NCBI GenBank assembly: GCA_013166775.1
Contig: JABLTJ010000011.1
Span: 1 to 64,000, forward strand
From: Promethearchaeati archaeon
Lineage (GTDB): Archaea > Asgardarchaeota > Heimdallarchaeia > Heimdallarchaeales > Heimdallarchaeaceae
Length of the DNA stretch: 64,000 nucleotides
Reading direction: 5' to 3'
Positions 2,831 to 8,986 of this stretch are shown one piece after another. Under the pieces are notes generated by a model. That model was not told the DNA's origin, did not search any database, and saw only the letters and a list, made by a program, of their open reading frames with translations. Position 1 is the first letter of the stretch. Each line of letters begins with the position of its first letter. Position numbers and translations under genes: made by a program.

Positions 2831-2917
2831 GTATGTCATAATGAAACAATGTTTATTAGTATAAAATTAAAGTACTATTTGTTATTAGTTTCACGTGATT
2901 ATATGTGAGGAGATTAC

Positions 2918-3670
2918 ATGAGTAGAGTAAACCTTGAATCAGCAAAAAATAATATTGAAAGAATTCTTACTAGTTTAAATGAAATCCAGCAACTTCTGAC
3001 TAGTAAAAATCAAGAGATTAATTCTAAAGTTCGAGATTTTAATGACACTTTAACAGCTTATTACAAGCAAGCTGAAGAAAAAAATCAGCTAATTAATCAA
3101 GAGGAAGAGAAAAAAGCAAGTAATACTGTTCTACTGGATCAGAATAACCAAAAGCTACAAGGATTAAACCACACTAAGGATGTTCTACAATCCGAGATTT
3201 CAAGTAAACAACGAGATATTGAACAATTATCTGCTATGATTCTAGAAAGAGAGAAGCTCTTTACGGAGTTGAGTGTTCAAATTGATTCCTTAAATGAGAG
3301 AATATCAGAACTAAAGCGTAAAGACGAGGAAATAGAAGTTCTCACTCAAGTTACTTTAGATGAAACTAAAGATGAACTAAGAAAGAAAGAGATTCATCAT
3401 GCTGAATTGTTAACAGAGTATAACAAAATGATTTCAAGATCGAAAGCTCTCAAATATTTGGTAAAACAGGATATAATTAACTTACCTGAAATTCAAGTAA
3501 TAAGAAACTTAACAGTTCCCGGTGTTGATAATGAAGAGAACTTGAAGAAAACTTCTGGAGTTTCCGATCAGATCATTAGAAATATGCTAACTGATTTAGA
3601 TACGAGAGGTATCATAGCTTTTGATATACATACTGGTAAATTCCAGGTTTTAACGGAGTTGGATATTTAG
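2918..3670 (+). CDS. Coiled-coil protein with C-terminal winged-helix domain (paralog A)
   Basis: About 175 aa of heptad-rich helix, then YLVKQDIINLPEIQVI...LKKTSGVSDQIIRNMLTDLDTRGIIAFD (HTH plus wing); GAGGAG SD. Confidence 0.8.
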   Translation: MSRVNLESAKNNIERILTSLNEIQQLLTSKNQEINSKVRDFNDTLTAYYKQAEEKNQLINQEEEKKASNTVLLDQNNQKLQGLNHTKDVLQSEISSKQRDIEQLSAMILEREKLFTELSVQIDSLNERISELKRKDEEIEVLTQVTLDETKDELRKKEIHHAELLTEYNKMISRSKALKYLVKQDIINLPEIQVIRNLTVPGVDNEENLKKTSGVSDQIIRNMLTDLDTRGIIAFDIHTGKFQVLTELDI

Positions 3671-3679
3671 GTGAGTAAA

Positions 3680-4432
3680 ATGATGGAAGAAAAGATGATT
3701 AGAATTTTAGATGAATTGAAACAGGATTTTGAAGAATTATCAACAAGAAAAACTTCAGTTATTTCAACAGTTAAGATGACTATAGAAACGACTACAGATG
3801 ATGTAAGAGCTATACCTGGTTTCATAACTTCATTACAAACAACCATTCAAAACCTTCAACAAATGAACAGGGATTTAGAAGAAAAAATCATGCAAGCTCA
3901 ACAATCAATTGACACTGTTACTACAGAGACTGAGATTAGTTCAAGTAATAAATCTGATCTGGAAACTACCGAGGAAAGAAAACGAAACCAGAAAGCAGAC
4001 TTGGAAGTTCAAATAGAAGAATACCAAAATAAGAAAGTTCAACTTGAAAAGGAGTTTCAGGAGCTCACTCATCTTGTGAGTATGAAAGATAATGACTACA
4101 ATCAGCTACAGGTAACTATAAAGCAAGAAATCGATGCGATAAATCAAAAAATAAGTGAAGCTGGTACGAGATTAGAGTCAGCTAAAGAAGAAAATAAACT
4201 CATAGTTTATTTGATGGATTCTGGACTTTTGGATGTTCCAGAAGCTGAAGTTGTCTCAATAATTGCCTCTTATCCAAACGGTTTGACAATGACAGAAATT
4301 AAAGAAAGAGTAAGTATGGCACCAGTTAGAGTTCAGCCTACAATTAACAATCTTCTTGAAAAAGTTCTAGAACATGATCCTGTATCTGATTCTTATAGAA
4401 TACTTGATACAATAAAGAAAGAACTAAATTAA
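3680..4432 (+). CDS. Coiled-coil protein with C-terminal winged-helix domain (paralog B)
   Basis: Same architecture: YLMDSGLLDVPEAEVV...GLTMTEIKERVSMAPVRVQPTINNL. AGGTGA SD overlaps the upstream TAG. Confidence 0.8.
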   Translation: MMEEKMIRILDELKQDFEELSTRKTSVISTVKMTIETTTDDVRAIPGFITSLQTTIQNLQQMNRDLEEKIMQAQQSIDTVTTETEISSSNKSDLETTEERKRNQKADLEVQIEEYQNKKVQLEKEFQELTHLVSMKDNDYNQLQVTIKQEIDAINQKISEAGTRLESAKEENKLIVYLMDSGLLDVPEAEVVSIIASYPNGLTMTEIKERVSMAPVRVQPTINNLLEKVLEHDPVSDSYRILDTIKKELN

Positions 4433-4625
4433 TTTAACTCTGGAAATAGAATTTGAGGGAATTTTTTTTCTATTTTTCACATAAGGAAAGAGAACTCTTG
4501 CTTTGTAAAAACTGTATCCATGACATTAAACTATGTGTATTTATTGCAGAGATAGCGTAATCTTTTTGAAGCAATGTAAAATTGAGAAATTGAATCCGTA
4601 TTCATAATACGTATTGAGGTTATGA

Positions 4626-6022: not shown

Positions 6023-8986
6023 TTAAATAGGTTCTACGATTATTCCTTCTCCTTTTTGAGCATCTATTCTGATTATCATGGGTTTCTTTGTTCTTATATG
6101 TCTTACATATTCTAAATCAGTTACAATTTCCTGTTTTTCTAGCCAATCCCAATTTATAACTTGTTCATCTTTGTTGTATTTAATATGGAAGTAACCAATA
6201 TTTGATGTCACAATATTATGGAAGAAATGACTTCCTTGTGAAAAATCTACTTGAAAACCCTCTAAACCTGCTTCAATAATAATTTTAGCACTGCTGATAT
6301 TATTCCATTTTGCAGGTATTCCAAGAAATCTATCAGCAGTTCCCCATCTACCAAAACCAATTAAAACAGAATCTGTCTTTGATTTGTATAAATTAGCATT
6401 AACTTGATCAATCTCTTCAGCAATCTTAAGTGTCTGTGTTTTATCAAACTTATCAGGTTTCACGAAAATAATATCTCGCAGGTCTTTTCTGATGAGATTA
6501 CCTGATACATGTGTCGAATGAGCTATTACATTTTTTATATCAGCTGAATCTAACTCCTCAATCATCATTGCTTCTTGGTATAGATAGGGTCGAATTTGTA
6601 GAATAACAAATTTATCTTTCTCATCTTTGAATTTCTTAAAATTTCCTGCAAACTCTATTTCAATTGAACTTCCTAGAGCTTTCTCACCCATTATTAGTAT
6701 TTTCGTAATAATTTTAGCAAGAGGAAAGGTTTCCAATTTTAATTGATTGCCAAAAGTTATAACAGGAGAACCTTCATCAAAATATCCTTCACGTAAAATT
6801 TGAGAACTGAAATCATAGGTATCAGCTATATGTGATAATGTTCTATCTTCAATAGCATCACTTAGATTATACTTTACAGTAAAGGGATCATATTCCAAAA
6901 TGTCGAATGCTTTGTACATTAAATCAATTGCATAGAAATTCTTTTGACTTAAATCTAATAATTTATCAGGAGTTGAATGGTAATTCAGTTTAGGATATTT
7001 TGGACAGAATCTAACTGAGGCACCACCATCAAGTATGGTTTTCCCAAGACCAAGTGCTACATGAGCAATCCTATCCTCAGGTTTCATATAGTCACCAAAT
7101 GGATAGAAGTTATAGGATGCAGCTGCGCCTGAAAAGTCAGGATAGAACCTATTATTATGTTCTCTACCAACAACATCCTGAATAACAACAGCCATTTTTG
7201 ATTCCTCAACAGTATAACTGATAGTTTCAGCATACGTTTTAGCAAGTTTTAGAAAAGGAGATGCGTATACTAATTTTATAGCTATACACAGCTGCTCTAA
7301 TCTATCTTTTTCATTAAGGCTATTGTTTGGCAACATATACGTGTCAAATATTCCAGCGAAAGGTTGGTAAGCAGAATCTTCTAGAAGACTGGAAGAACGT
7401 ACTGCTAATGGGCCATTTAAATCTCTTAGTAAGAAATCCAAATCATCTCTTAGGCTCTTTGATAATTTTGCTTTGGTAAAACGTTCTTTAATTTCCTGGT
7501 CTGATACATCAGACAAAGCAAATTCATACAGATTATTGTCTTCCATAAATCTATCAAATTCATCAGTACCAATTACAATTGTTTTCGGTATTTCTATAAT
7601 GACATTTTTAAATTCAACATCAATCATAAAGGAGTTAAGCAAAAACATTAAAAACGCAAGTCCTCGACCTTTTCCTCCCAAAGAACCGGGTCTTAGACGT
7701 ATAAAGAGAATTTCAGGATGATACGATTCTCTAGAAAAATCATTTACTATTCCTCGAGTCTTTTCAATCACAACTTCATTTATGCTTTGTATCAAAAACG
7801 ATCTTAGCTCATCCTCATTAAACTCTGATACTTTTCGTGGTTTAAGTTTTTGTGCTATTTCAAATTCTCCTCTTGCATTTAACCAGTTGGAGAAGTGATC
7901 GTTTTTTCCATGATAAATGAGAGAGCTCTCGGGTATCTTTTCTAATTGCTCATAAAAATCTAAAATATCTTTAGCCTTTCCAACAATTTTACCTTCACTA
8001 TCTTTGAAAATAAAATCACCAAAGCCAACATTATTCAATAACCAATTTTTTAGGTCCCACACCATTCCATGAGATCTTTTATGAATAAATGAATAACCTT
8101 GTTCTTCAGCTTTTTCTTTATATTTTTCTTTGCTAGATTGCAGAATTATTGGAAGATTCGCATGCTCTTTTCGTAGTTTTTCAGCAAAAGTAAAACCTGC
8201 AGATTTATCCAGTTCACCATTCCGGGAAAATTCTATATCAAGAATAACTCCCATGACATTTTCCTCGAATTTCTCATAATATGCTAATGCCTCTTCATAA
8301 GTTTCAGCGAGAAGAATTTTAGGTCTAATCCGCATCTTGAGTAAATCTTGAAAATCATTTCTACCTTCTGTAATCAATCGATGCGTTTGACGCATAAGTT
8401 CTCCATAAATCTCAGGTAGAAGAAGAGAGTAAAAACGGATTGAATCGTCTACAAAAATAAAAACTTGGACGTCTCCAGTTTTTGTATCATACTCTGCGTT
8501 AATTTTATCTTCTAGATGCTTGATTATTGCTACAAAGAGCTTTGAATCTCCATTCCACACAAAAATGCGGTCTATTCCTTTTCGTTTATCATAATCAGGA
8601 ACATATTTGATTTCCATAACGCTATTAAGAAGAAGAATTACTGGTATTTCTTGTATTTCTTTTACTTGCTCTCCAAAAGTAAACGCATCTATTTCTCCCA
8701 ATCTCCTCATGGTTATGACGAGATCGAAGTTTTTTTCCTTGAGTATATCAATAGCTTCTTGGGCAGAAGATACTCTGGTTATTCTAGGCAGTGTTCTTAA
8801 GTTTAGATTTTTGAATTCTTCGTAAATTTGATCTGAAAGTCTTCCATCCTCTTCAATCATAAAACTGTCATAAATGCTTGAAACTAGAAGCACATTGTGC
8901 ATTCTCTTAGACATTAGTTCATGAAATATCTTATATTTAGGTTTATAATCAAAGTAGAAACTTTCTTCACCATACTCTGTAGTCAA
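6023..8986 (-). CDS. Receiver-like domains fused to PEP synthase/PPDK N-terminal (ATP-grasp) domain
   Basis: SLGGKGRGLAF, PLAVRSSSLLED, FAGIFDT, GLGKT, IEIEFA, LQIRP. REC-like N-terminal segments; no His-swivel or PEP-binding barrel. Confidence 0.88.
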   Translation of the reverse strand: MTTEYGEESFYFDYKPKYKIFHELMSKRMHNVLLVSSIYDSFMIEEDGRLSDQIYEEFKNLNLRTLPRITRVSSAQEAIDILKEKNFDLVITMRRLGEIDAFTFGEQVKEIQEIPVILLLNSVMEIKYVPDYDKRKGIDRIFVWNGDSKLFVAIIKHLEDKINAEYDTKTGDVQVFIFVDDSIRFYSLLLPEIYGELMRQTHRLITEGRNDFQDLLKMRIRPKILLAETYEEALAYYEKFEENVMGVILDIEFSRNGELDKSAGFTFAEKLRKEHANLPIILQSSKEKYKEKAEEQGYSFIHKRSHGMVWDLKNWLLNNVGFGDFIFKDSEGKIVGKAKDILDFYEQLEKIPESSLIYHGKNDHFSNWLNARGEFEIAQKLKPRKVSEFNEDELRSFLIQSINEVVIEKTRGIVNDFSRESYHPEILFIRLRPGSLGGKGRGLAFLMFLLNSFMIDVEFKNVIIEIPKTIVIGTDEFDRFMEDNNLYEFALSDVSDQEIKERFTKAKLSKSLRDDLDFLLRDLNGPLAVRSSSLLEDSAYQPFAGIFDTYMLPNNSLNEKDRLEQLCIAIKLVYASPFLKLAKTYAETISYTVEESKMAVVIQDVVGREHNNRFYPDFSGAAASYNFYPFGDYMKPEDRIAHVALGLGKTILDGGASVRFCPKYPKLNYHSTPDKLLDLSQKNFYAIDLMYKAFDILEYDPFTVKYNLSDAIEDRTLSHIADTYDFSSQILREGYFDEGSPVITFGNQLKLETFPLAKIITKILIMGEKALGSSIEIEFAGNFKKFKDEKDKFVILQIRPYLYQEAMMIEELDSADIKNVIAHSTHVSGNLIRKDLRDIIFVKPDKFDKTQTLKIAEEIDQVNANLYKSKTDSVLIGFGRWGTADRFLGIPAKWNNISSAKIIIEAGLEGFQVDFSQGSHFFHNIVTSNIGYFHIKYNKDEQVINWDWLEKQEIVTDLEYVRHIRTKKPMIIRIDAQKGEGIIVEPI

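Follow-up and report, generated by a model that had tools for sequence, protein, structure and literature searches.

A conserved gene pair of Asgard archaea predicted to encode a paired coiled-coil rod with two winged-helix domains

Rod-shaped heterodimers of paralogous chains, with a pair of domains at one end, are used repeatedly by eukaryotes to link DNA or filaments to other machines. Hop2-Mnd1, a eukaryotic recombination accessory heterodimer that binds double-stranded DNA and stimulates Dmc1/Rad51, is the closest concept to the gene pair described here, by analogy and not by membership. Winged-helix (wH) domains of the MarR/Lrs14/Lrp type are mostly DNA-binding, and a whole protein of the MarR family is a homodimer of ~140-160 aa in which the wH is flanked by N- and C-terminal dimerisation helices. 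The crenarchaeal nucleoid protein Sso10a/Sul10a is described as a 95-aa antiparallel homodimer whose heads lie ~5-6 nm apart (PMC4941522). Other proteins combining a coiled coil with a wH were recorded inside ESCRT loci in a survey of ESCRT systems (PMC10936438).

The locus studied here comes from a member of the Heimdallarchaeaceae (Asgard), assembly GCA_013166775.1, contig JABLTJ010000011.1; the window is the whole stretch of DNA analysed, 64,000 nt, positions 1-64,000 of the forward strand. The original prediction, which had rightly taken the source for a probable Asgard genome, held that two coupled genes of about 250 aa encode tandem paralogues of matched architecture, each with a coiled coil, a shared hinge and a terminal wH, and that their products may form an obligate heterodimer, perhaps a structural, DNA-linking or cytoskeleton-linking complex. 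The two genes, called A (upstream, or UP, type) and B (downstream, or DN, type), and the signals around them are as follows.

2845..2859, + strand: BRE/TATA-like, promoter-like element AACAATGTTTATTAG, ~60 nt 5' of gene A and conserved upstream
2905..2912, + strand: Shine-Dalgarno-like GTGAGGAG ahead of gene A, from sequence reading
2918..3670, + strand: gene A, an open reading frame of 250 aa with stop TAG at 3668-3670
3669..3674, + strand: Shine-Dalgarno-like AGGTGA for gene B, from sequence reading, overlapping the A stop and 5 nt 5' of ATG 3680
3680..4432, + strand: gene B, a reading frame open from GTG 3671, 250 aa from ATG 3680
4462..4477, + strand: T-rich run (T8 then T5) 3' of gene B, from sequence reading

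Gene A has 52 homologue clusters, and every complete one is 250 aa. For gene B the most likely start is ATG 3680, which gives a 250-aa product of the same length as A, because its homologues are 250-251 aa (coverage 97-99%), the B profile match begins at 3680, and AGGTGA stands 5 nt upstream; GTG 3671 is immediately 3' of the gene A stop. The overlap of AGGTGA with that stop suggests that translation of A and B is coupled. In an upstream alignment of 15 Heimdallarchaeaceae loci the element ahead of gene A was kept as AACAAGATTTATTTAG and was followed by a conserved GTATTATnTGTTATT block in the 2845-2879 region, and GTGAGGA 5' of gene A was conserved as well. From what is known of archaeal promoters, 2845-2879 probably holds the promoter and the start of transcription; no palindromic operator was evident in the conserved region upstream of A in these 15 loci. 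The T-rich run is a probable archaeal terminator. A bacterial-type promoter/terminator scan, not informative for an archaeon, found no hairpin terminator. With the promoter-like element in front and the T-run behind, the A-B pair seems to be transcribed as a unit by itself. Around it lie unrelated genes, for oppD-type and oppF-type ABC ATPases upstream, for glutamate dehydrogenase downstream, and for a receiver/PPDK_N protein on the other strand. The OppF-type ATPase (1563-2789, + strand) is 408 aa long, with an ABC_tran domain that begins only at residue 108 and an N-terminal extension containing a long hydrophobic stretch at about residues 55-95, unusual in a soluble importer ATPase. Tail to tail with the glutamate dehydrogenase gene, 6023-8986 (- strand) encodes a 987-aa protein with a response-regulator receiver and a PPDK_N ATP-grasp domain.

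AlphaFold2 monomer models of A and B, built with family alignments, divide the two chains into the following parts.

2924..3466, + strand: A rod, residues 3-183, one continuous helix of ~27 nm, from AlphaFold2 and the heptad core pattern
3485..3649, + strand: A wH, residues 190-244, with a YL...PE hinge before it, from AlphaFold2, Foldseek, VIA-align and profiles
3683..4219, + strand: B rod, residues 2-180, one continuous helix, from AlphaFold2, with A's core columns and two stutters
4235..4402, + strand: B wH, residues 186-241, from AlphaFold2, Foldseek, profiles and Pfam matches in DN orthologues
4406..4426, + strand: B family-specific terminal helix, residues 243-249, from AlphaFold2

The A model (pLDDT 92.4) has a helix at 3-183, shorter helices at 190-197, 206-213 and 217-229, and strands at 233-235 and 241-244. 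The B model (pLDDT 84.7) has a helix at 2-180, shorter helices at 186-196, 204-210 and 215-228, strands at 230-233 and 238-241, and a last helix at 243-249. The matched architecture that had been claimed was therefore recovered, both products being 250 aa with a helix of ~180 residues and a C-terminal wH. The extra C-terminal helix of B, and an invariant Ile-Pro inside the B rod (AIP, residues 44-46, nt 3809-3817), were found only in Heimdallarchaeaceae; both are missing from other Asgard B-type proteins. A joint alignment of 44 A and B sequences is almost gapless over 250 residues with 12-20% identity between lineages, and by this measure the rod length is strongly constrained. Conservation is highest in the hinge and wH, second in the N-terminal 25 residues and lowest in the rod, a distribution that fits two working ends held at a fixed distance.

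Pfam and NCBIfam searches with A and B gave sub-threshold coiled-coil noise alone, and neither an ATPase nor a membrane segment was found in either chain, as had been expected. Two existing names for homologues, 'chromosome segregation ATPase' from JGI and 'V-SNARE coiled-coil homology' for an Atlas cluster, are coiled-coil artefacts. The NCBIfam SMC matches reached ~18-22 bits against cutoffs of 567-729 and covered coiled-coil regions only, and an ABC or AAA Pfam match was absent. One orthologue matched Synaptobrevin at 15.4 bits, short of the 26.4 cutoff, and A and B lack a hydrophobic tail, the C-terminus being a wH in both models. Assignment to the intermediate filaments or crescentin was rejected as well, the best Filament match scoring 22.8 bits against a cutoff of 40 and Rod_CreS 19.7 against 100. 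Wide VIA-align and Atlas fold searches returned long helices and generic wH domains separately, and both together only in Asgard clusters; among ESM Atlas clusters, the nearest consist entirely of unnamed Asgard proteins, 242-251 aa in length. Neither a Pfam or NCBIfam family nor a solved structure covering the pair's whole architecture was found, and a literature search, including locus tags, found no paper on the A-B pair.

In both models three helices and a beta-hairpin wing make up a wHTH fold of the MarR/TrmB type. Foldseek matched only the wH part of each chain, that of A to MarR, Fur, ArsR and the TFE wH and that of B to MarR, TrmBL2 and TtgV, with probabilities of 0.99-1.0 for the MarR, Fur, ArsR, TrmBL2 and IclR wH domains, and VIA-align matched the A wH to that of SelB (Z 8.4, rmsd 2.2). 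Against the PDB, the UP wH profile matched MarR/EmrR (E 4.8e-4), TFE (7e-4) and LrpA (2.8e-3) and, weakly, the wH of CdvB (2xvc, E 0.01), cullin (0.03) and Mnd1 (4y66, 0.11), and the DN profile matched Lrs14-like proteins (E 1.9e-4), MarR (6e-4) and Lrp (1.2e-3). Pfam at E up to 0.01 listed MarR in 10 and TrmB in 8 of 44 family members; A and B of this locus matched neither. One B-type orthologue passed the Pfam MarR gathering score (25.2 bits, cutoff 24.6), and the Odinarchaeum B orthologue is tagged in UniProt with an HTH iclR-type domain. Their fold, together with a sequence similarity that is weak but significant, places the wH domains of A and B in the MarR/Lrs14/Lrp/TFE class (MarR/TrmB-type). 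It had been asked of the original prediction whether the wH would match an ordinary characterised regulator family, and the answer is divided: the domain is of the MarR/TrmB/Lrs14/Lrp class, with one orthologue passing Pfam MarR and PDB matches at E ~2e-4 to 5e-4, but the whole architecture matches no characterised regulator family. The wH domains are neutral to acidic in net charge (A-type ~0, B-type -7 to 0), and in the third helix a single conserved Arg stands among residues that are hydrophobic or acidic, the usual DNA-reading positions being hydrophobic or acidic. As read from these residues, a non-basic wH weakens the case for DNA binding.

BLASTP detected no similarity between A and B. 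In a profile-profile comparison, residues 150-248 of A aligned with 149-247 of B (E 9.9e-6, probability 82%), and the predicted hinge motifs, present in both chains, aligned with each other; in distant lineages the A profile covered B-type proteins over their full length. A and B are distant paralogues, a relationship visible only with profiles. In a maximum-likelihood tree, 20 upstream and 20 downstream copies split (support 94/99) into mirrored subtrees, in keeping with the claim of tandem paralogy. Because the tree separates UP and DN copies in this way, the history read from it is one old duplication that preceded the divergence of these lineages, after which the two copies co-diverged. 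At one further locus (L034, G105:C8, 1468-4591) a tandem double pair A-B-A'-B' was seen, and each copy grouped with its own type in the tree.

Both A and B are single-copy in this genome. The distribution of the pair was surveyed in 399 genomes of the phylum with a broad profile, scoring no more than six candidates in each genome, and absences are soft. Strong matches (E up to 1e-30), in most cases two side by side, were counted in ~205 of the 399 Asgard genomes and in 15 of 33 families, and there the ordered pair A then B recurs, abutting or overlapping. Three families (f31-f33, 89 genomes, with f31 accounting for most of the hits listed) gave weak matches only, and in the largest family (f20, probably Lokiarchaeia) many genomes had 3-5 matches. 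The pair occurs in Heimdallarchaeaceae, Ca. Atabeyarchaeum deiterrae and Baldrarchaeia, in cultured Promethearchaeum syntrophicum MK-D1 (DSAG12_03037 and DSAG12_03038) and in Ca. Odinarchaeum yellowstonii (OdinLCB4_007335 and 007340), everywhere annotated as hypothetical. All 19 complete pairs at the distant loci examined had an A-type gene followed directly by a B-type gene, with stop and start often overlapping, and no neighbour genes were conserved around the pair when distant loci were compared. Co-conservation of A and B had been set beforehand as a test of the original prediction, and the ordered pair proved to be strictly kept far beyond the Heimdallarchaeaceae.

In a representative search with a mixed profile, true members were 237-254 aa with a single matched stretch, and giant coiled-coil proteins swamped the list; no fused form of ~500 aa was among the best 150 of that search. 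A contig-wide search for related loci and a further homologue search returned Heimdall-group records only. Open reading frames of ~310 aa whose match to the A profile was confined to the N-terminal half (G204:C1:316713-317063, G239:C93:13574-13978 and G250:C196:3614-4021) may represent a third, longer relative.

The core columns of A-type and B-type chains coincide, as do their two stutters, between which 115 residues run in unbroken heptads. In the rods of both types position a is I/L/V and position d is L, the usual signature of two-stranded parallel coils. Averaged over 18 species pairs in the parallel, in-register arrangement, the net number of attractive g-e' pairs was +6.5 of 46 for A:B, -1.9 for A:A and +2.1 for B:B, and the score was ~0 for whole-heptad-shifted and all antiparallel registers. 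With the partner swapped for one from another species the score was -0.55, and the true value was reached in 0 of 10,000 permutations; with one pair per family (10 families) the values were +8.4 vs -0.78, with 0 of 20,000 permutations. Several g-e' positions are +/- in some lineages and -/+ in others, and have therefore undergone compensating changes. This g-e' complementarity is the strongest evidence, from sequence, for a physical, parallel, in-register pairing of A with B. Within the Heimdallarchaeaceae the score is non-discriminating (A:B +3.1, A:A +1.0, B:B +1.75, shifted register +3.2), and the A:B pair of this locus scores +2 only. Charged residues at core positions a and d number 7 in A and 8 in B of this locus and never fall in the same layer, and in 16 other Heimdallarchaeaceae pairs there were 0 core-charge coincidences vs 14.9 expected and 16-37 in shifted registers. 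Because the core charges never coincide, a homodimer in register would place 7 or 8 pairs of like charges in its core, the heterodimer none. Covariation of core side-chain volume and hydropathy was marginal (p about 0.02-0.1) and was not used as evidence. The g-e' charge pairs and the avoidance of core charges both favour the obligate heterodimer that had been predicted, and A:B is quite probably a parallel, in-register heterodimeric coiled coil. The architecture of the chains, their paralogy, their joint conservation and their complementarity are computed results; the dimer is inferred from sequence.

How might the pair work? We propose that a single small operon gives rise to A and B by coupled translation and that the chains would assemble as a two-stranded heterodimeric coiled coil, parallel and in register, ~27 nm long. 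Two different wH domains, derived from the MarR/Lrs14/Lrp class, would then lie side by side at the C-terminal rod end, and two moderately conserved N-terminal tips would come together at the opposite end, with the weakly conserved rod middle keeping an almost invariant length between them. The A:B complex would in this way be a fixed-length, two-ended adaptor, whose N-terminal tip, as a guess, engages either a second partner or a further A:B rod. Taken whole, from co-translation through the parallel rod and paired wH head to the fixed-length adaptor, this reading is somewhat better than an even bet. The likeliest ligand of the paired head is double-stranded DNA, at about even odds, and otherwise a protein or peptide, a protein ligand being a serious alternative to DNA; the ligands are guesses, as is any structural, chromosomal or cytoskeletal role in the cell.

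The arrangement of the chains bears on a different possibility, that A:B or homodimers are antiparallel, with a wH at each end, forming a 27-nm rod that bridges or stiffens DNA as a giant analogue of Sso10a/Sul10a. The stutters lie at alignment columns 29-37 and 152-160 (A residues ~23-31 and 146-154), ~24 residues from each rod end, and this mirror symmetry makes the whole core pattern palindromic about the rod centre, as an antiparallel dimer would need. In the diverse set, moreover, core-charge avoidance is as strong for the antiparallel arrangement (7 coincidences against 13.9) as for parallel A:B (7 against 12.8). However, e-e' and g-g' charge pairing gave no signal in any antiparallel register, whereas for the parallel arrangement in register g-e' pairing gave a strong signal that is specific to true partners; in the Heimdallarchaeaceae the antiparallel register has 10 core-charge coincidences vs 0 in the parallel one; and an antiparallel homodimer would leave the strict pairing and co-divergence of two paralogues unexplained. 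We regard the antiparallel rod as very unlikely. The palindromic core is unexplained under a parallel dimer and might reflect end-to-end or tail-to-tail assembly. A further reading is that the pair is an oddly long heterodimeric transcription regulator, in which an asymmetric operator would be recognised by the two wH domains of MarR/Lrs14 type, with the coil serving only to dimerise. The small size of the genes, the match of the wH domains to DNA-binding regulator families by sequence and fold, and the iclR-type tag of the Odinarchaeum orthologue are what such a regulator would have, but a dimerisation helix of 180 residues, almost free of indels across the phylum, far exceeds the need. A and B also lack a ligand-binding domain, a conserved adjacent target gene, a palindromic operator in the conserved upstream region and a basic wH, and the pair is single-copy and kept in 15 families, unlike many lineage-specific MarR-type regulators. 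An ordinary regulator, for which the interest of the A-B pair would drop sharply, is accordingly improbable.

The acidic or neutral wH domains, with their hydrophobic 'recognition' helices, speak for a protein-protein scaffold or filament subunit, in which the wH ligands would be peptides or proteins, on the model of CdvB, ESCRT-II and cullins, and the rods would associate side by side or by their ends, like intermediate filaments and tropomyosin. Strict rod length and fixed stutters are typical of filament formers, and the A-type wH profile does weakly match the wH domains of CdvB and cullin (2xvc at E 0.01, and E 0.03). Sub-threshold matches to Filament, crescentin and tropomyosin point the same way, but none of these Pfam matches reaches its cutoff, and they are noise of the kind that coiled coils typically give; the wH domains match DNA binders best, and the pair is not associated with ESCRT, actin or tubulin genes at the loci compared. 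A scaffold or filament subunit of this kind is rather unlikely. On the boldest reading, the pair would be an Asgard-specific tether with a fixed length of 27 nm, with the double wH head on chromatin and the N-terminal tip on a cytoskeletal, membrane or division structure. The tether is distinctly improbable; if true, it would be a prokaryotic counterpart of the rod-shaped heterodimeric linkers of eukaryotic kinetochores and recombination.

The fixed-length, two-ended adaptor that we prefer would be encoded by a module of two single-copy genes that occurs in roughly half the Asgard genomes sampled. Because the pair is present in cultured MK-D1 (DSAG12_03037/DSAG12_03038) and in Odinarchaeum, it is directly testable.

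The comparisons first drawn with Hop2-Mnd1, Ska1 and CdvB hold as analogies, but family membership was not found for any of them. Proteins of the MarR, Lrs14, Lrp and TrmB types, among them the chromatin protein TrmBL2, form homodimers in which the wH is N-terminal or central and the dimer helix is short; a ligand domain is often present. TrmB and Lrs14 resemble A and B in dimerising through a helix next to the wH, whereas A and B are two different chains with a C-terminal wH, a 27 nm rod, no ligand domain and a non-basic surface. Membership of the MarR family as a whole protein was rejected, A and B having 250 aa, a single N-terminal helix of 180 residues and two different chains. Sso10a/Sul10a shares with A and B a wH carried by a coiled-coil rod that fixes how far apart the heads lie, and its role is architectural, not regulatory; Sso10a is an antiparallel homodimer, whereas the charge tests favour a parallel heterodimer for A and B. 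CdvB (ESCRT-III) and Ska1 likewise have a helical region followed by a C-terminal wH, and their wH binds protein, not DNA. The helical part of CdvB is a hairpin polymer subunit, whereas that of A and B is a single 180-residue helix, and Snf7 and Ska1 Pfam matches were absent from A, B and the orthologues scanned. Unlike the coiled-coil and wH proteins of the ESCRT survey, the pair is not in ESCRT loci.

Like A and B, Hop2 and Mnd1 are two paralogues of ~200-250 aa, each with one wH and a long coiled coil. The wH of Hop2-Mnd1 is N-terminal and its coil is kinked into three leucine zippers, whereas in A and B the wH is C-terminal and follows one helix of 180 residues. Pfam TBPIP (PF07106) and Mnd1_HTH (PF03962) were unlisted at E up to 1 for A and B and absent among the families listed for the scanned orthologues (E up to 0.01-0.1, best 25). 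Hop2 and Mnd1 are thought to pair in parallel with their wH domains side by side, as proposed here for A and B, and a parallel heterodimeric coiled coil of two paralogues is what the sequences of A and B indicate.
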